Assembly (NCBI GenBank): GCA_964528155.1
Contig: CAZGRL010000006.1
Span: 26,648 to 90,647 of the forward strand
Direction of reading: 5' to 3'
DNA from: an uncultured Anaerolineaceae bacterium
GTDB taxonomy: Bacteria > Chloroflexota > Anaerolineae > Anaerolineales > E44-bin32
DNA length: 64,000 nucleotides
Shown: positions 4,400-55,601 of the stretch, piece after piece
Layout of the letters: every line of letters starts with the position of its first letter
Numbering within the stretch: the first letter of the stretch is position 1
Translations under genes and position numbers: made by a program
The notes under the pieces: model-generated
What the model was told of the DNA's origin: nothing
Databases searched by the model: none
The model's input: only the letters and a program-made list of their open reading frames with translations

Positions 4400-4431
4400 A
4401 GACAAGGCCGGCGACTCTGCCGGCCTTGTCT
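4400..4431. terminator. Bidirectional hairpin between convergent SURF1 and thyX
   Basis: AGACAAGGCCGGC / GACTCT loop / GCCGGCCTTGTCT, a 13-bp perfect stem. Confidence 0.6.
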
Positions 4432-13483: not shown

Positions 13484-13625
13484 GGGATAGTGCCCGCAGG
13501 TGAATCTTGGTTTGGCGGGCAGCCGATCGATCCCGGCCTCACCAAAGACACCGGCCGGGGTGGCCTCCCACAATCTGTCCATTTTCAGGATGAGCTGACG
13601 AGACGGATACGCCCAGATTGCACTT

Positions 13626-13678
13626 TTGCCGAAATGAGATCGCAGGCGGCTCCGCTGCCTGCGATCTCATTTCGGCAA
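13626..13678. repeat. Perfect 22-bp-stem palindrome with GGC-TCC-GC apex (hairpin A)
   Basis: TTGCCGAAATGAGATCGCAGGC ggctccgct GCCTGCGATCTCATTTCGGCAA, located between divergent nusA and gyrA. Confidence 0.85.
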
Positions 13679-13823
13679 GACTGGAGTAAGGGGGTGAAGC
13701 AGTGCTACCTCAAGGTGCAGCCGATGATGCGCACTCTACGGACCCGGGGCCTGCGGTTTGACGGAAGCGGCGCTACCCCGTATCATTCCGGCGGCAAGAT
13801 GGCAACCCTCGAGGTGACATCCA

Positions 13824-38392: not shown

Positions 38393-38478
38393 TAGTCGGC
38401 ATCAACATACACTGGATGAAGGTCTGCGCCACGGTCGGGGCGTCTGCATCCGGAGTTGCACTCCCTTGGGGAAGATTA

Positions 38479-38529
38479 GTGGATTTGGGTTTGTTGGGGG
38501 GGGGGGGGGGGCAAAAAAGCCAAAACCAC
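38479..38529. repeat. Degenerate copy of the palindrome family, with a G16 homopolymer at the apex (hairpin E)
   Basis: GTGGATTTGGGTTTGTTG + G16 (38496..38511) + CAAAAAAGCCAAAACCAC. The arms pair at 15 of 18 positions. The left arm closely matches the left arm of hairpin B. Confidence 0.6.
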
Positions 38530-38643
38530 CAACTCTACACAGCGGGGTGGAAACAAAAACCCGGGACACCCCACAAAAAGCGAGGATAGACAAAGGCGGT
38601 CTTTTATGGCACGATACTTGGACTCTTGTAGCATGGAGGCTGC

Positions 38644-39357
38644 ATGGCGAAGAGGTCCGCTTACCGAGAGAAGCATCGACAGCAACAACAGCGCCGCCGC
38701 CTGACGATCATCATCGTCGTCAGTATAGCCGCACTGGCGGTGGTCGCATTGCTGATCCTGCCGAACTACCTCCCCGTCGGAGAAGTCGCCTCTGTGACCC
38801 CACGCGCTCGCCCGGATGCACAGGGCATGACCATGGGGAACCCGGACGCGCCAGTGCGTATCGACGTGTTCGAAGACTTCCAGTGTCCCTCGTGTCGAGC
38901 ATTCACGGAGAACTACGAACCCTTGCTGATTGCCAACGACATTGCCAGCGGCCGGGTGTACTACGTGTTCCGCAATTGGGCTTTTATTGGGCCCGAATCC
39001 CTCCAGGCCGCCAACGCCGTAATGTGCGCCAACGCTCAAGGACGCTTCTGGGACTACCATGACATGCTGTTTGCCAATCAGACCGGTGAGAATGTCGGCG
39101 CTTTCTCCGACAGACGCTTGGTGGCATTCGCCGAGCAACTTGGATTGAACATGGCCGATTTCAATGCGTGCTTCGATAAGAACGAGTATCAGGCCGAGAT
39201 CCAGAATGACTATTCCGAGGGGAAACAGATGGGAGTCAGCGGCACGCCAGCTGTCTTTGTCAATAGCGTGCAAATCGCGCCGGGCTTTATCCCCAGCTAC
39301 GATCAGATCGTACAGGCAATCGACGACGCCATCGGCGGGACTCCGATCGCGCCCTGA
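38644..39357 (+). CDS. Membrane-anchored DsbA-family thiol:disulfide oxidoreductase
   Basis: TM segment (LTIIIVVSIAALAVVALLIL), CPSC active site in VFEDFQCPSCRAF, and GVSGTPAVFVN. Confidence 0.85.
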   Translation: MAKRSAYREKHRQQQQRRRLTIIIVVSIAALAVVALLILPNYLPVGEVASVTPRARPDAQGMTMGNPDAPVRIDVFEDFQCPSCRAFTENYEPLLIANDIASGRVYYVFRNWAFIGPESLQAANAVMCANAQGRFWDYHDMLFANQTGENVGAFSDRRLVAFAEQLGLNMADFNACFDKNEYQAEIQNDYSEGKQMGVSGTPAVFVNSVQIAPGFIPSYDQIVQAIDDAIGGTPIAP

Positions 39358-39427: not shown

Positions 39428-39518
39428 TACATCTTCACCCTCGCTTTGGGTCACCCGGACCGAGCTATGTGACCGGGGCTCCAGTGGAAGCGGAAGCCCC
39501 TCGTCTCACAGATGATCG

Positions 39519-40229
39519 TCAGATCCGACCAATCCACTGCATAAACCAGACGATGGCCGGGGATACGGCCAGGGCTGGCAGCAGATTGCCGGTCCTGATC
39601 GGCTTGAGCTCGAGCAGGCTTCCGATCGACAACCCCATGAGCAGGATCCCGCCGACGGCGGTCAGCTCGGCCGTCATCGGATCGGTCAGGATGCTGCGCG
39701 CCTGCGCCGCCAGCAGAGTAAGCCCGCCCTGGTACACGATGACAGTCAGGATCGAGAACATCACGCCGATCCCCAAGGTCGAGGCGAACGCCAGCGCGGC
39801 AAAACCGTCCATCACGGATTTGATCGCCAGAAGTTGGTAATCGCCGAGCAATCCATCCTGAATCGAACCGATGATGGTCATGGGCCCGACACAGAAAAGC
39901 AGACTTGCGGCCAGGAAACCGCGCACAAAGCGATTGCCTTCGCTCTCCTGATCGCCGGCCGCGAACTTCGTCTCCAGCCATGATCCCAACGCCCGCAGAC
40001 GGTCCTCGATACGCCACCATTCCCCGAGCAGTCCCCCGATCAGCAACCCGCCGAGTGCGATCAGTGGGTTTTTCGTCTGGAGGAACATCTGGATGCCGAT
40101 GGCGAAAGTGAACAGCCCCAGTCCGGCCATGACGGTCTGGCGGACTCTCTCTGGAAGGCGCGAGCCGATAGCCATCCCAAGCTGGGCGCCCACAACAATC
40201 GTGACAACGTTCAGAATGGTGCCGGTCAA
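39519..40229 (-). CDS. DUF554 family membrane protein
   Basis: MTGTILNVVTIVVGAQLGMAIGSRLPERV and a polytopic profile. The start overlaps the upstream stop (ATGA). Confidence 0.7.
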   Translation of the reverse strand: MTGTILNVVTIVVGAQLGMAIGSRLPERVRQTVMAGLGLFTFAIGIQMFLQTKNPLIALGGLLIGGLLGEWWRIEDRLRALGSWLETKFAAGDQESEGNRFVRGFLAASLLFCVGPMTIIGSIQDGLLGDYQLLAIKSVMDGFAALAFASTLGIGVMFSILTVIVYQGGLTLLAAQARSILTDPMTAELTAVGGILLMGLSIGSLLELKPIRTGNLLPALAVSPAIVWFMQWIGRI

Positions 40230-40783
40230 TCCGGCCTGCCTTTGGCCAGGCTCGGCGAGTCAACGCCGGCAGCCTGCGTCTCGAACAGAGCCAGAATAAA
40301 ACACAGGGACGACAGGCGATTGAGGTAGGCCAAGACCATCCCGTTGGAGAGACCGCCCTCATGCATCAGGCGAGATACCAGACGCTCGGCGCGCCGGACG
40401 ACTGTTCGCGCCAGGTCAAAAGCTGCGCCGGCGAGTGAGTCCCCTCCCAGCACGAAGTCCTTCGGCATGTTGACATTGGGCCCGATCCGGTCGATGTTCG
40501 CCTCGATCCACTCGAGACGAACCCGATCCACCGATTCGAAGCGCGCCGCGTTATCATCCGTCGAGGCCAGCTCCGACATCACGCGATACAGGTCGCGTTG
40601 GATCTCCATTGTCAGACGGCGGCCTTCGTCGGTCTTCGCCAGGGCGCGCGCCAGACCCAGCGCGGCCGAAGCCTCGTCCACAGTTCCATAGGCCTCCGGC
40701 CTCAGGTCATGCTTCGGCACCCGGCCCTCACCCAGCAGGCCGGTATATCCGTCGTCGCCTTGCCCGGAATAGAAGGATGACAT
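40226..40783 (-). CDS. PduO-type ATP:cob(I)alamin adenosyltransferase
   Basis: YSGQGDDGYTGLLGEGRVPKHDLRPEAYGTVDEASAALG. Start taken at ATG 40783 (MSSFYSGQGDDG). Confidence 0.85.
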   Translation of the reverse strand: MSSFYSGQGDDGYTGLLGEGRVPKHDLRPEAYGTVDEASAALGLARALAKTDEGRRLTMEIQRDLYRVMSELASTDDNAARFESVDRVRLEWIEANIDRIGPNVNMPKDFVLGGDSLAGAAFDLARTVVRRAERLVSRLMHEGGLSNGMVLAYLNRLSSLCFILALFETQAAGVDSPSLAKGRPD

Positions 40784-46922: not shown

Positions 46923-49900
46923 CTATCGCTTCCGCCGACGGCGTCTTTTCTTACCGCCTTCCGAGCCATTCCCGCCAGACCGTGCTGCGACGGTCTCCGG
47001 GATTCTGGCGGGTGGGGCGGCCCCGGTCGCCGGGATTGCTTGTGGCGGACGGGCACCGGCTTGTGTTCGGAACAGATTGGATACCACACCCGAGCGGATC
47101 TCGGATGTGAGTTGTTGAAACATGTCAAAAGCGCGACTCTTGTACTGGACCAGGGGGTCACGCTGACCATAGGCTTCCAATCCTATCGACGTGCGCAACG
47201 CCTCCATCTGCGTCAGGTAGTCGATCCAGAGTCGATCCCCCACGGCCAGGATCAAGCCGCGATAGGCCTCCATCAGGAATACGCTTCCCATTGCACGGGC
47301 AAGCCTGGCCCGAGAGTCGCCAGCGAGGGAACCAATCGGTCCTGCTCCTGCGAGGTCGGCGAAATCCTCCTCCCCCAGCTCACGCCGGAGCGCAGCCTGC
47401 AGAGTGGGTTCCAACTGATCCAGGGCAAGGGCACTGTTCCTGGCCAGACCGGCATTCCCCAGGCTGTGCTGCAGGGCCGCTTGTGCACCTCTCAGATGAT
47501 CAAGAACATGCTGACTGAGATCGTCGACTCGCCAATCGGTAAGCAAACCGGCGGCAGCGAATGCATACGACAGGCGCGGCACAACCAGGGTGCGCCTCTG
47601 ATGGGTCTTTCGATCGAAAAACGTACGTTGGCCGTAACTAAGCTGGACGAGAAGCCGTACCTTCAATCGTTCGTTGACCTCGGTACCGTTGGACAAACGG
47701 TCGTCCAGCTCGCGGCCTATCTCCTCCAGCGTTCGGTCTTGGCGTTGGGTCCACGTCGAATCGAGCGCCGCCAGCAATCTCTCAGACGCCGCGTCCCAAT
47801 CGATCGGCGTCTCGAGGGTCGGCTCAAGGCCCAGGCTTTCGCCAATTCTCCGCTCGACTGCCTGCACTATGCCCGCCCAGACGCGAATACCCAGACTGGC
47901 CTCCACGATCTCGGGCACCATGTCACGGAATCGATCCGGATCGTCGCGCACTTGATCGAGCCCGGCCTTGTCGATCTGAAGGCGAAGGCCGGCGTTTTCC
48001 TCGACCGACCTGACCAGAGCCTGAGGGTCAATCGCCGTCTCGTTTGTCTCAGCTTCGAGCAAGGACCCTTCGATCGCAGTCTCTGCCATCTCCACACGCT
48101 GCCGGACTTGATCCTGCAAATGATCAAGAGAGCGGTCGAACTGCTCCTCGGCAGAACGCGCAAGATGCTCCTTCTGTGTCTCAAGGGCCTGTCGTGCGGC
48201 ATCCAGAAGCTGTGCCCGAAGGCTCTCAACATCTGTTGCAGTGACTAGTTCGTCGAGCAGCAACCGGAGCATGAATGAGGGATAGGGTTCTTCACTTTCC
48301 AGATTGAGGGTCGGCTGGGTTTCTTCCAGCCAGGCAAGGAGCTTCCACGGTCCTTCCGGATCCTGCAAGGCCATGCTCACGTGCTTCTCGACGTCGACGC
48401 TCAGCATTTGATCCACGTCGTCGCGAATGTCGTCCTTGGCGAAGACCCTGTTGCGCTGGTTGTAGAAGACTTCGCGCTGTTGATTGAGTACATCGTCGTA
48501 CTCGAGCAGGTGCTTGCGGGTGTCGAAGTTGGCGCCTTCGACTCGCATCTGCGCTTGCTCGATCGTGCGATCCACGATGCTGTGCCCGATCGGGACGGCT
48601 TCGTCGATGCGCAAGCGCTCCATCAAACCGGAAACCTGGCTTCCACCAAACAGCCGCATGAGCTCATCTTCGAGGGAGAGGAAGAATTGCGAGGAGCCAG
48701 GATCGCCCTGCCGCGCAGAACGACCACGCAGCTGATTGTCGATCCGCCTCGATTCATGCCGCTCGGAGCCGATCACGTGCAGCCCTCCGGCCTCACGGAC
48801 CCGTCTCTCATCGGCGATAAAGCCGCGATACAGCTCCATCTCCGATCCGTAGATACCGATCGCCTGACGGTCCACCTCCGACAGCTTGGCGAGCCGCTCC
48901 TCCATGTTGAGGTATTCGGGTTCAGCGATCCCCGCGCGTCGCAGGACCCGGTTGACCGCCGCCAACACCTCTTCGGCGATCTCACCGCCGAGGCGAATGT
49001 CAACGCCACGTCCGGCCATGTTGGTGGCAATCGTGACGGCTCCGAAAGCCCCGGCGTCAGCAATGATGCGTGATTCTTCGTCGTGCTTCTTCGCATTCAG
49101 AACATTGTGCTTGATCCCCCCTTCGAGAGCCTCTCTCAGCCTTTCTTGCTGCGACGCCTCGAGCTCAAGCACGGCCGTCAGCCGCTCGAGATTTCTGTCC
49201 CGGGCCGGGTTGAGAGATAGATCCAGGTCCCGGGCGAAAGGCCGCAACACTCCCGGGCTCAGATCATCAATCGATTGATACAGCGGCATGAGCTCTTCGA
49301 CGCGCGTACCGTCATCCGCCAGCCCCTCGCGCTCGAGATAGGCATCTCGCAGGAGTAGAACCATCGCCAGGCGCTGGAGCGGTTCGGCGCGCAATCTTCC
49401 CGAGAGACGTTCGGAGAGCTCGACCGATGTCGTCCCGACAAGCAGCGGCTGTCCGAGGACGTGCCTTCGCAGAATCTCCGTCGTCACCGCCCTGAGCTTC
49501 GCTTCTTCGGTACGATAGACCGCGTCGGGGTAATCCTTGCGTTTCCAGAAGATTGGCGTCTGTTCCTCGTCGTCCTCGCGCGCGTAACAGATGAAATGGT
49601 TTCCGTCTTCTCGGAACTCGACTTCGACGAGGTCCGTGTCGGGAGCCAGGGCGATGTATTCAAGATTCGTCGGAAGAGGTGTGACGTCGACGTTGTAGAT
49701 CTTGTTGAACTCTTCGGCTTCGGTGACCGCCGTACCGGTCATGCCGGCGAGCTTGTCGTACATCCTGAAGTAGTTCTGCAGGGTGATCGTGGCGTAGGTG
49801 ACGTTGTCCTGCCGCACACGTACACCCTCTTTCGCCTCGACCGCCTGGTGGAGACCGTCCGACCAGCGCCGCCCTTGCATCAACCGTCCGGTGAACTCGT

Positions 49901-50948
49901 CAACGATGATCACCCGGCCGCCCTGGACGACGTAGTCTTTGTTGCGCTTGAAGAGGAACTCGGCCCTGAGTGCCTGCTCGAGGTATCCCATCAAGCGCGC
50001 CTGTTCCGGCGTGATGTCTTCCGGACGATCGGGATCGCGCAGCGGAGTCGCCAGGAGCTCCTCGATGTGGTTTTCGCCGATCTCGGTCAGTGAAACCATC
50101 CGGTCTCGCTCGCTGATCTCGAAATCTTCGGCCCTCAGGTGTTTGACTACCTGCGCCATTTGCTGATACAGACTGGGGTCTTCCTCGGCCGGACCGGAGA
50201 TGATCAGTGGTGTGCGCGCCTCGTCGATCAGGATGTTGTCGACCTCATCCAGAATCGCGTAGTTGTGACCGCGCTGGACCCGATCTTCCAGGCGGCGCGC
50301 CATGTTGTCACGCAGATAGTCGAAACCGAATTCGTTGTTCGTGCCATAAGTGACGTCGGCCGCGTAGGCCATCCGGCGGTCGACGATCTTCAGCTGGTGG
50401 ACGTCTTCCTGGACGGAGTCGCGCGTTGGGTCGTACAAGAATGCCTTCCGGCCGTTCTCGGTGCGAGCAGCCTCCTGAAGGATACCCACGCTCAGGCCGA
50501 GGAATTCAAAGATAGGACCCATCCAACGGGCGTCACGCCGGGCCAGGTAGTCGTTGACCGTGACAAGATGAACGCCCTTCCCCTCCAGGGCATTCAAGTA
50601 GATCGGCATCGTCGCTACCAGCGTCTTGCCCTCGCCGGTGCGCATCTCGGCGATCATTCCCTGGTGCAACACCACCCCGCCGATGAGCTGAACGTCGAAA
50701 TGGCGCAGCCCGATCGTACGCACGGAGCACTCCCGAACTACGGCGAACGCCTCCGGCAGGATGTCGTCAAGCGTCTCCCCCTCGCCGAGCCGCTGCCGAA
50801 ACTCGTCCGTCTTGGCGCGCAGTTGCTCATCACTCAGCGCGTGCATGGCCGGCTCGAGCTCGTTGATCGCTTCGACAAAAGGTTGATAGCGCTCGATTTC
50901 ACGGCGGACGGGATCGCCGCCGATGATTCGTGTCAGCGTCTTGAACAT
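46923..50948 (-). CDS. secA: Preprotein translocase ATPase SecA, unusually long (1341 aa)
   Basis: [59 protein letters not shown] and [13 protein letters not shown]...[18 protein letters not shown] lies before ATG 50948. Confidence 0.92.
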
Positions 50949-51032
50949 TGAATTGGATCCTTCCAGGCGGGATTATAGCACAGGCGTTTTTACGTCCGAT
51001 TCTTGCGCGATGTTGAGTGAATCCTCCGTAGT

Positions 51033-51093
51033 GCCTGGTGGATTTGGGCATGTTGGGCGTCTCCGCCGCCCAACATGCCCAAATCCACCAGGC
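51033..51093. repeat. Perfect 26/27-bp-stem palindrome (hairpin B)
   Basis: CCTGGTGGATTTGGGCATGTTGGGCG tctccgc CGCCCAACATGCCCAAATCCACCAGG, located between the divergent secA start and tRNA-Leu. Confidence 0.9.
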
Positions 51094-51171
51094 TTGCTCC
51101 GCGGCGTGCAACATACACCCGTGACGTCATTCGGCTTGACGGGTATACCGCCCGATATACAATAGCCACGA

Positions 51172-51255
51172 GGGGCGGTGGCGGAATGGGCAGACGCCGG
51201 GGACTTAAAATCCTCTGAGGGTGACCTCGTGTGGGTTCGACTCCCACCCGCCCCA
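51172..51255 (+). tRNA. tRNA-Leu (anticodon UAA), type II, no encoded CCA
   Basis: Acceptor GGGGCGG/CCGCCCC, anticodon loop CTTAAAA, long variable arm GAGG-gtga-CCTC, T-arm GTGGG-TTCGACT-CCCAC, discriminator A followed by CTA. Confidence 0.85.
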
Positions 51256-51339
51256 CTACGGGGCTCTTACACCTCACGCTCGCCGGGCTCCGGCTTGAAC
51301 CTTGCAACGCCGTCAGCTTGAGTAGGATCGGAGGCCGGA

Positions 51340-52920: not shown

Positions 52921-52951
52921 GCCGCTAGTGCTCCGTCCAAGAGAATTCACT

Positions 52952-52996
52952 GGGTTATTAGGGTCGGGTTGCTGCGCAACCCGACCCTAATAACCC
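52952..52996. terminator. Perfect 21-bp-stem triloop palindrome between convergent genes (hairpin C)
   Basis: GGGTTATTAGGGTCGGGTTGC tgc GCAACCCGACCCTAATAACCC. Confidence 0.7.
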
Positions 52997-53026
52997 ATCA
53001 ATCCTTGTTGGACAGAGTACTAGGTG

Positions 53027-54393: not shown

Positions 54394-54486
54394 ACCACGA
54401 TGATACCAGGGGTTTGTGATCTGAGTCAGGACAGCGACACCCCGGGTTGTATTCGGCGGTGTGTTGCACGCCGCGGAACAGACCTG

Positions 54487-54537
54487 GTGAAATTGGGACT
54501 ATTGGGCGGCGGAGCCGCCCAATAGTCCCAATTTCAC
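54487..54537. repeat. Perfect 24-bp-stem triloop palindrome (hairpin D), in terminator position after the L,D-transpeptidase gene
   Basis: GTGAAATTGGGACTATTGGGCGGC gga GCCGCCCAATAGTCCCAATTTCAC. It is preceded by CCTG, as in hairpin B. Confidence 0.9.
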
Positions 54538-54590
54538 TTATCGTCCCCGATCAGTGCAACAGAGTGACGCGCGGATTGGAGACGAGATCC

Positions 54591-55601
54591 TCAGGGATGG
54601 ACGTTTACGAGGGTTCCGACAGAGGCGAAGCCGAACAACCATTCGGCGTCGGGCGTGGCCAGGTTGACGCATCCGTGACTCATAGGGTGCCCGAAGTTGT
54701 TGTGCCAGTACGTGCCGTGAAGCGCGAATCCTTTATAGTAGTACATCGTGTACGGGACGCCGGGCAGATAGTAACCCGGGCCGGCCATTGGAGTCGCCCG
54801 CAGTTTCACGTAAATGCGAAATTGGCCGGTCACCGTCGGGTGGGCAGCCACGCCGGTCGACACGATGAACGTGCGGATCGGATCGGCACCTTCGTAGGCG
54901 ACGACCTTTTGCTCGCTCAGATCGACGTCGATCCACCGACCCTCATCCGCCAAATCGGCGGGGTTCTCCGTGTAATCCCACGAGACGTTCGGACGCGGGG
55001 TCGGCGTTTCCGTCGGCGTTGGGGTTTCGGTCGGGGTCGGCGTCAGCGTCGGGGTGAGTGTGGGCGTATTGGTCGGAGTCGGCGTCGGTGTAAATGTCGG
55101 GGTCGGCGTCGAACTGGCCTTCTCCACCTGGGCCGGCCCAGCCTGCGGCTGCTTGGCGTCTGCGGGCTGACCGCCGAACCACAAGCCGAGACCGACCACA
55201 AGTGCCAGCGCCGGGAGCATGGCCTGAGGCGAGAAAAGCCTCCGAACGGTCAGCGCTTCAAGGGGTGCGATCTGGTAGTTGAGACCTGCGGGAAGTCGTG
55301 CCTGCCGCGCCGCGGCCTGGCGATTCTGGCGAGGGATGCGCCTCATGCACCAATCGACTGCCTTGCGCGCGGGGGCGCTCTGAGGATTGATCTCCAGGGC
55401 ACGGACGGCATACGCCAGCCCGGCTTCGGCATCCTCGGCCGAGGCGGCCATGCACAGCCAGGCAGCCTCCGAATCGGGAGCCAGCGCCACCGCCCGCCGG
55501 GCGATCCGCCTCGCCCGGGCGCGATCGCCCTGGCCGAGGGCCGCCTTGCAGGCCTGGAGCATTTCACCGAGTGCCTCGAGCGAAAGTCCGTCTCGCGTCA
55601 T
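54591..55601 (-). CDS. L,D-transpeptidase (YkuD domain) with TPR-like N-terminus and a Thr/Pro repeat linker
   Basis: Catalytic [24 protein letters not shown] and the linker [38 protein letters not shown]. Confidence 0.88.

Follow-up and report, generated by a model that had tools for sequence, protein, structure and literature searches.

The window analysed here is a 64,000-nucleotide stretch of DNA from an uncultured Anaerolineaceae bacterium of the phylum Chloroflexota (assembly GCA_964528155.1, contig CAZGRL010000006.1, positions 26,648 to 90,647 of the forward strand). Its intergenic spaces carry very long, perfectly paired hairpins, designated A, B, C and D, and the left half of a further copy. 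Hairpin B, at 51033–51093 between secA and a tRNA-Leu gene, is the starting point of this study, and the features on which the following description draws are these:

13609–13695, minus strand: element A, with its core at 13626–13678 and ATTGCAC at 13617–13623.
38455–38498, plus strand: left half of a third copy of the B/D type, a GTTGCAC flank followed by the arm GTGGATTTGGGTTTGTTGGG; contigs back its letters to 38492–38498.
38499–38579, no strand: run of 16 G (G16) and A-rich stretch, probably an assembly artefact over the remainder of the third copy.
46923–50948, minus strand: secA, 1341 aa.
50972–50980, minus strand: extended −10 box of secA, TGCTATAAT, between B and the secA start codon and invariant in four syntenic genomes.
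51011–51113, minus strand: whole B element, about 103 nt, an outer inverted repeat plus the palindrome.
51033–51093, no strand: core of hairpin B, with arms of 27 nt (51033–51059 and 51067–51093) that are 100% complementary.
51136–51163, plus strand: tRNA-Leu promoter, TTGACG-16-TACAAT, outside the B element and conserved in relatives.
51172–51256, plus strand: tRNA-Leu(taa), which passes the Rfam gathering threshold.
52925–53023, minus strand: element C, 99 nt, a near-complete hairpin between convergent genes.
54462–54561, plus strand: whole D element, 100 nt, an outer 8-bp inverted repeat plus the palindrome.
54487–54537, no strand: core of hairpin D, with arms of 24 nt (54487–54510 and 54514–54537) that are 100% complementary.

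The window holds four to five copies, every one intergenic and with both strands represented. B is flanked by the divergent genes secA (minus) and tRNA-Leu(taa) (plus); A lies directly upstream of gyrA (plus) and has a 92-aa open reading frame (ORF) and the nusA operon (minus) on its other side; D is flanked by a YkuD-domain gene and a 140-aa ORF (orf140), both on the minus strand.

The stem of D ends in a GGA triloop closed by a C-G pair (GCGGAGC), and the apex of B consists of a T·C mismatch, a C-G pair and a TCC triloop, which reads GGA on the minus strand. The core of C (52951–52997) has 22-bp perfect arms and a GCA triloop (minus strand), and that of A has 22 perfect base pairs, a G·T pair, two further base pairs and a TCC triloop (GGA on the minus strand), so that the GGC-TCC-GC apex attributed to A in the original prediction, which had been made from the letters of the window alone, is indeed present. 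On one strand, every apex of A–D reads GC-GNA-GC: GCGGAGC in A, B and D, and GCGCAGC in C. Perfect stems of at least 22 bp occur four times in the 64 kb (A–D), against about 8 × 10−8 expected by chance at the window's GC content; the next-longest perfect hairpins have 13-bp stems (at 4400 and 39396) and resemble ordinary terminators. The z-scores of the DNA folds of A–D range from −7.7 to −11.6 (B, −8.3 to −9.4; D, −9.3; C, −11.6).

These cores sit within a larger unit. On the minus strand, the B element reads TGTTGCAC, 14 nt, the palindrome, about 14 nt and ACTCAACA, and its outer inverted repeat (51011–51018 / 51106–51113) pairs at five of eight positions. In D the outer inverted repeat is perfect (8/8); it is formed by TGTTGCAC (54462–54469) and GTGCAACA (54554–54561), encloses unpaired shoulders and the palindrome, and appears as an outer helix in the minimum-energy DNA fold. 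The ends of C are CTAGT...ACTAG, and relatives of the element in other Anaerolineaceae have the terminal inverted repeats TAGGAGTTACGCAGTT and AACTGCGTAACTCCTA. The element unit is about 100 nt long and comprises an outer inverted repeat, unpaired shoulders of about 14–15 nt and a perfect core.

B and D are two diverged copies of one non-coding DNA element of about 100 nt, and A and C follow the same plan as more remote members of the family. A 21-nt apex core, TTGGGCGNCTCCGCCGCCCAA, is found exactly in both B and the reverse complement of D and had 0 matches in shuffled sequences. A 28-nt one-sided flank (TGTTGCACGCCGCGGArCArrCCTGGTG, 3/28 positions differing) is common to B (minus) and D (plus), and in both it precedes the palindrome on the strand where the loop reads GGA. 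Because the seven nucleotides that might be taken for the loop of B resolve into a mismatch, a C-G pair and a triloop, the stem differences between B and D number six; five are mirrored on the other arm and one (51060, T vs G) is not, so that the earlier statement that every arm difference is mirrored stands for five of the six. The step from covariation to selection on the hairpin itself has likewise to be softened: the mirrored changes are there, but template switching within a palindrome also yields mirrored changes, plus loop inversions. The idea that the arms of B and D evolve faster than their flank was dropped, since the differences (5/21 vs 3/28) are too few for such a claim.

The letters were checked against Logan contigs from four salt-marsh metagenome runs, which hold the window. 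With 0 differences, contig X4 extends to 51064, X1 begins at 51088 and X2 spans 54490–54700; B and D are thus carried by independent contigs, the palindromes are real rather than products of assembly, and their description as perfect palindromes is borne out. The third copy had been described as a decayed copy at 38479. Its flank and left arm are common with B and D, whereas its decay is doubtful: 0 contigs in the four runs cover 38499–38579, the same runs cover both flanks at 100% identity, and one X1 contig enters the gap from the right with differing letters (...CAACAAACAGCCGGATACACCCATCAGACT). The stretch is probably a misassembly of the poly-G, low-quality-read kind over a palindrome. An ORF called at 38476–39273 (minus) overlaps it and may be affected; this ORF and its neighbour at 39451–40362 (minus) have no Pfam match and a low GC content at third codon positions (0.59 and 0.50, respectively, vs about 0.72 elsewhere), and may be spurious or foreign.

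The gene neighbourhood of B and D (secA / tRNA-Leu / CBM9 / Trx-TPR / orf140 / YkuD / amidase) is syntenic in six loci of Anaerolineales or Chloroflexia metagenome-assembled genomes (MAGs). The secA–tRNA spacer measures 92 nt in one of these loci (L010) and 110 nt in another (L013) vs 223 nt here, and in an alignment with both, B is an insert of about 130 nt between two conserved core promoters; it therefore lies outside both transcription units and is lineage-specific. The claim that B is not in a terminator position accordingly holds, secA (minus) and tRNA-Leu (plus) diverging from it and both core promoters lying downstream of it. At the site of D, no hairpin was found in the YkuD–orf140 spacer of L013 or L019, and an alignment of this spacer with its orthologues was uninformative because they are too diverged; at the site of C, the convergent Trx-TPR/CBM9 spacer of relatives holds ordinary hairpins of 11–16 bp. 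When hairpin density was compared with a 20-bp stem window and at most two mismatches, 0 hairpins were found in 205 kb of syntenic relatives; by the same measure, the 64-kb window has 4, the 451 kb of Chloroflexota loci that bear elements have 33 (pattern-forced copies left out), and 1017 kb of other phyla have 3. The absence of the palindromes from syntenic relatives suggests a lineage-specific gain.

Two observations concern secA itself. With no more than about 24 nt between its −10 box and the ATG (50946–50980, minus), the transcript should have a leader of only some 17 nt, which is very short. The closest relatives of the protein are found in Anaerolineales MAGs (identity up to 69%), and several of the closest Anaerolineales/Chloroflexia relatives match residues 1 to about 1300–1340, which makes the long form a lineage trait rather than an error of the window.

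Related elements were sought by pattern in collections of genome and metagenome contigs, among which the window's own genome is not included. An arm pattern, TTGGGNNTNTTGGGCG-N3-9-CGCCCAANANNCCCAA, which fixes conserved arm letters only, matched 9 genome loci and 6 metagenome contigs, and had 0 matches in viral contigs; the genome loci belong to Anaerolineales and Chloroflexia MAGs, together with four copies in one Solirubrobacterales MAG. At the free positions (three per arm), 48 of 51 cells are Watson-Crick paired, with three to four pair types at each position and G·U in 0/51; the three unpaired cells all come from the Solirubrobacterales copies. An apex-only pattern, TTGGGCG-N1-2-C-GNA-G-N1-2-CGCCCAA, which forces merely 9–10 bp, matched at least 120 loci. 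Among the matches listed, Anaerolineae and Chloroflexales dominate, the Chloroflexales being represented by isolates as well (Oscillochloris trichoides DG6, Oscillochloris sp. ZM17-4 and strain ZM16-3); a small number of other taxa and a single Prochlorothrix MAG make up the rest. Perfect stems in these matches are 19 bp long at the median, most often 21 bp and at most 27 bp. The arms of the Chloroflexales copies vary through mirrored changes (e.g., TTTTTGTTGGGTTTGGGCGGC, ..GTCAGG.., ..GCTGGGA..), and the same loci hold additional long perfect palindromes with unrelated arms and the same apex. GNA occupies 44 of the 62 triloops that were not forced by the search pattern, vs 1/8 expected (p = 3 × 10−26), and 43 of these 44 are closed by C-G. 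The apex pattern had eight matches in viral contigs, seven of them even-length and hence asymmetric, as expected of chance; the whole B element had no match in plasmid and phage collections, and the flank pattern none in the genome contig collection. The related elements in many Chloroflexota MAGs and isolates are perfect palindromes of 17–27 bp, their arms variable but mirrored and their apex GC-GNA-GC.

Several of the loci sampled contain further repeats. At L108, L109, L167, L199, L210 and L214 (Oscillochloris sp. ZM17-4, Chloroflexales ZM16-3 and ELA251), two small GC hairpins, GGGGCGGC-gaa/ttc-GCCGCCCC and CTGGGGC-ttc-GCCCCAG, occur on either side of the long palindromes and form with them mosaics like those of bacterial interspersed mosaic elements (BIMEs). 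Perfect palindromes of 28–32 bp at L096 (5484–5552) and L199 (2934–2994) have arms made of 7–8-nt tandem repeats (CACTGAGG ×4, AGATTGC ×4). Chthonomonas sp. AMX-MBFR-81 (L142, L144, L150 and L186) and a Fimbriimonadaceae MAG (L203) carry a separate multi-copy repeat, CGTCACGCTGAGC-CCTTGGGCGAC-gNa-GTCGCCCAAGG-TGTCGAAGCGGAC, with an 11-bp stem and the same style of apex. In a Peptococcaceae MAG (L080, 1307–1359 and 6233–6277), a member of an unrelated phylum, two perfect 21–24-bp palindromes with related arms, GGGGACGG(G/T)GACTTTTTGCG, lie near secA.

The orientation of the loop was defined against the asymmetric outer flanks of relatives, independently of the loop itself. Anaerolineaceae copies have an alpha arm, TAGGAGTTACGCAGTTCCGGGGAAAA, and a beta arm, TAGGACTTACGCACTTGGTTGGAGGA; in MAG CAYXDC01, GNA is on the alpha-first strand in two copies and on the beta-first strand in two, in MAG CAYWIC01 the two orientations stand at 1:1, and L008 and L009, which belong to one MAG, have opposite orientations. 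Both loop states are also common in a family of Prochlorothrix sp. (MAG JAYKIB01, L116–L211), in which about half of the copies are flipped. A large proportion of copies thus have the loop turned round with respect to the flanks, but one of the two strands invariably reads GNA. The Prochlorothrix family resembles miniature inverted-repeat transposable elements (MITEs): at least 59 copies lie in about 150 kb of sampled loci, with conserved flanks GGGCACCTCGATTAA ... CCCTGATTCTGCCGTGGG...ATTAATCG, a 14-bp hairpin and a middle of 6–7 nt that is hypervariable yet mirrored. Since its copies were sampled by their flanks only, the sample is unbiased as to the stem; of 59 stems, 25 are perfect, 16 have one mismatch and the remainder have more. 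Stem variants recur as sub-families (TTGGGTTGGGCGGC, TTGGGTTGCGCGGC, TTGTGGCCGGCGGC, TTGAGGCAGGCGGC), each with its own perfect stem, in what looks like the master-copy dynamics of REPINs, hairpin-forming pairs of repetitive extragenic palindromic (REP) sequences.

Placement was classified from crude ORF maps for those elements in related genomes that could be classified (n = 67): 22 are convergent, 32 tandem and 13 divergent, which is not distinguishable from the 1:2:1 expectation for random intergenic positions (p = 0.28). Between tandem genes, GNA lies on the sense strand in 13 elements and on the antisense strand in 11. None of the four hairpins A–D is picked up by a terminator consensus scan or followed by a T-tract. 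In the Rfam 15 scan only tRNA-Leu passes the gathering threshold; up to an E-value of 10, nothing lies over B or D, and C has a far-sub-threshold match to mir-981 that is read as chance. These contexts, together with the position of A and B in divergent promoter spacers, indicate that the family does not consist purely of terminators.

We consider it probable that B and its relatives are a dispersed, non-autonomous REPIN/MITE-like DNA repeat that has expanded in some Chloroflexota genomes and lands between genes regardless of transcription. The suggestion of a dispersed REP/BIME-like element, made in the original prediction, gains support here from the absence of the palindromes at orthologous sites of syntenic relatives and from the multi-copy families in other Chloroflexota. 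The strict Watson-Crick symmetry, an apex known for its stability in DNA, the indifference to the direction of transcription and the position of B outside the mapped units argue for a hairpin or cruciform at the DNA level rather than for a strand-specific RNA. Mobility, a DNA hairpin intermediate, template switching and a trans-acting enzyme are what we infer on this basis. The element would act as DNA; the GCGNAGC apex would nucleate hairpin formation in single-stranded DNA, or that of a cruciform in duplex DNA, and the structure rather than the arm sequence would be what is propagated or recognised. The stem might stay perfect because new copies arise only from copies with intact hairpins, as proposed for REPINs, in which compensatory changes that keep the hairpin are reported to be common (PMC3116915); alternatively, template switching during replication inside the palindrome might recopy one arm from the other and sometimes invert the loop. 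The two processes could operate together. In published work, template switching is recognised by arms that have become homogeneous and by inverted spacers (PMC8604942, PMC8794818), and it would thereby also explain the flip-flop of the loop. Where elements lie at 3′ ends, as C and perhaps D do, they may secondarily stop or stabilise transcripts.

A number of observations weigh against this account. B and D are only 76–90% alike, which means that neither is a recent insertion, and no direct repeat that could be a target-site duplication flanks either of them. No transposition event, within-population empty-site allele or mobilising enzyme was observed. The relatives with empty sites are distant (SecA 52–69% identical), so that absence could reflect loss or turnover; a close copy of B was not found among four other windows of the same genome, and the copies here mostly have unrelated arms, unlike those of typical high-copy REP or MITE families. 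Convergent sites are mildly over-represented (22 vs 16.75 expected, not significant), C and possibly D occupy spots where terminators are expected, and the elements may also have a role at the RNA level; the secA–B region was not found in any RNA run, and the runs listed for Oscillochloris trichoides DG6 were unrelated metatranscriptomes only. As to the enzyme, for which the original prediction had suggested a REP-associated tyrosine transposase (RAYT) or one of the IS200/IS605 type, a crude scan for HUH-Y1 motifs gave 0 matches (ORFs of at least 100 aa, about 130 element-bearing loci) and is not decisive. No transposase recurs near the copies, the 3452 ORFs from element-bearing loci clustering into housekeeping families only (e.g., histidine kinase, ABC transporter and acetyl-CoA synthetase), and a search that was not exhaustive found no parent insertion sequence sharing the ends of the element.

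The foremost alternative, which we regard as unlikely, is that the hairpins are selected by the host as RNA, serving as bidirectional intrinsic terminators without a U-tract, as insulators or as stabilisers of 3′ ends, in which case selection for RNA pairing would give compensatory changes. Such a function would suit C, between convergent genes where relatives carry ordinary terminator-like hairpins, and D, about 30 nt past the YkuD stop codon and ahead of a promoter-like site of orf140, as well as the mild excess of convergent contexts and the relatives at L006, L090 and L092, whose flanks have an A-tract and CCCCTTTT. It is at odds with the divergent promoter spacers of A and B, the latter being transcribed from neither of the conserved core promoters, with the lack of a T-tract behind any of the four, and with the random orientation relative to genes. 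The ordinary terminator-like hairpins in the window make do with 13-bp stems, the closest relatives manage without such hairpins, G·U is lacking at the free positions, and the apex is a DNA-stability motif.

A more radical variant of the DNA-level account, for which we see only a slim chance, holds that the palindromes are self-symmetrising, their arms being continually recopied from each other via a DNA hairpin nucleated by GCGNAGC, and their spread or upkeep depending on hairpin-templated DNA synthesis rather than on a conventional transposase. Under this proposal copies would stay perfect for long while their arms drift freely and the loop flips, a behaviour for which the flip and flop states of parvoviral terminal hairpins offer a likeness. 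If true, such palindromes would be a new kind of replicator or a new way of punctuating genomes, one that is widespread in Chloroflexota and extends to some Cyanobacteria.

It is still more doubtful that the palindromes are DNA sites for a protein or for topology, whether as a cruciform, as an operator for a dimeric regulator, a nucleoid protein or gyrase, or as a buffer of supercoiling between promoters. BIMEs bind gyrase and IHF; A and B do lie between divergent promoters, A directly upstream of gyrA, and B and D share the 10-nt phasing of TTGGG-N5-TTGGGCG with many copies from Chloroflexota and even with a Solirubrobacterales MAG. However, A and C lack this phasing yet have the same design, the genomes of close relatives are without the palindromes, and no candidate regulator gene is linked. 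A dimeric-regulator site, which had been raised at the outset, is in particular unlikely, for the palindromes (51–61 bp) far exceed known operators, their arms are not the same from copy to copy, and even the variable positions remain symmetrical, which contact with a protein would not require.

Palindromic chimeras of assembly or sequencing are extremely improbable: short-read contigs do tend to break at palindromes, and the G16/A-rich segment of the third copy is unsupported, but independent contigs from several runs match B and D with 0 differences, and palindromes of this design are also present in isolates (e.g., Oscillochloris trichoides DG6 and Oscillochloris sp. ZM17-4) as well as in numerous MAGs of differing assembly methods. 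Two further identities were rejected. A CRISPR repeat, for which the GTTGCAC...ATTGGGAC flank was considered, does not fit copies that are single and dispersed, with no array, and GTTGCAC occurs at chance level (8 vs 7.8 expected); in an attC site, the motifs GTTRRRY / RYYYAAC would be at the outer ends, and here they are at the apex.

Chloroflexota are abundant yet poorly studied, and the elements described here offer a natural system in which to ask whether hairpin perfection is kept through selection or through template-switch mutation, and which enzyme, if any, moves the elements. They adjoin the promoters of core genes (secA, tRNA-Leu and gyrA), whose expression they could affect. There is also a practical side, as short-read assemblies break at palindromes of this kind, which can in addition give rise to artefacts like the one at 38499–38579.

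Among known systems, the closest comparison is with REP sequences and REPINs. A REPIN consists of two inverted REPs and a spacer; a REP is a short, imperfect palindrome with a conserved 5′ tag, GTAG or CGTC, and a genome with such a system encodes a RAYT (a Y1 HUH transposase, PF01797-like), whose gene is usually flanked by the repeats. REPINs and the present elements share a non-coding, extragenic hairpin of about 90–110 nt, in which the ends are conserved and the paired middle varies more, random intergenic placement in either orientation, lineage-specific abundance, and compensatory changes that keep the hairpin (PMC3116915). They differ in that the centre here is a perfect palindrome of 22–27 bp with a GC-GNA-GC triloop apex, that the ends are not short palindromes of the REP type (the outer units being weakly palindromic in B only), and that the arms vary strongly between copies of the same genome. 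The stems of REPs are 5–13 bp long (PMC3733652), so that the 22–27-bp perfect stems here fall outside the short REP type. The GTAG tag occurs once, beside B (CCGTAGTGCC), and not beside A, C or D. With bacterial MITEs (Correia/NEMIS, Nezha and RUP), the elements have in common a length of about 100 nt, terminal inverted repeats, intergenic position, multiple copies and the lack of an ORF. The Prochlorothrix relatives, with their conserved flanks and at least 59 copies in the sampled loci, come closest to classical MITEs; for the elements of the window, which show terminal inverted repeats, neither a target-site duplication nor, in a non-exhaustive search, a parent insertion sequence was found, and they have a perfect core, mirrored variation and a loop that flips, whereas ordinary MITEs decay with unmirrored mismatches.

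Three other comparisons bear on parts of the element. Intrinsic terminators are likewise GC-rich hairpins, and C and D do lie downstream of genes; here, however, there is no U-tract, the stems are about twice the length needed, A and B lie outside any 3′ end, and both strands are equally foldable. Template-switch correction of quasi-palindromes predicts homogenised arms, mirrored multi-nucleotide changes and spacer inversion, all three of which are seen here (PMC8604942, PMC8794818), but as a mutational process it accounts for the perfection of the stems and not for the origin, spread or conserved apex of the elements. The apex is identical to the 'mini-hairpin' motif of DNA, GCGNAGC (GCGGAGC in A, B and D, GCGCAGC in C and GCGAAGC in many relatives), which is very stable, its C:G closing pair being worth about 3 kcal/mol, and which acts in single-stranded DNA at the origin of phage G4, at ssiA and in the virion-RNA polymerase promoters of phage N4 (PMC13037366, PMC3201870). 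The known examples have stems of 2–7 bp and are priming or promoter signals, whereas here the motif caps a 22–27-bp palindrome in a dispersed chromosomal repeat. A description of Chloroflexota extragenic repeats of this sort was not found in the searchable literature. As a kind, extragenic palindromic repeats are known; the present variant, with its 22–27-bp perfect core, GCGNAGC apex, hypervariable but mirrored arms and flip-flop of the loop, seems undescribed, and it combines three features not jointly described for REPs, REPINs or MITEs, namely long perfect stems that vary in mirrored fashion, the GCGNAGC apex and the inversion of the loop within a single genome.

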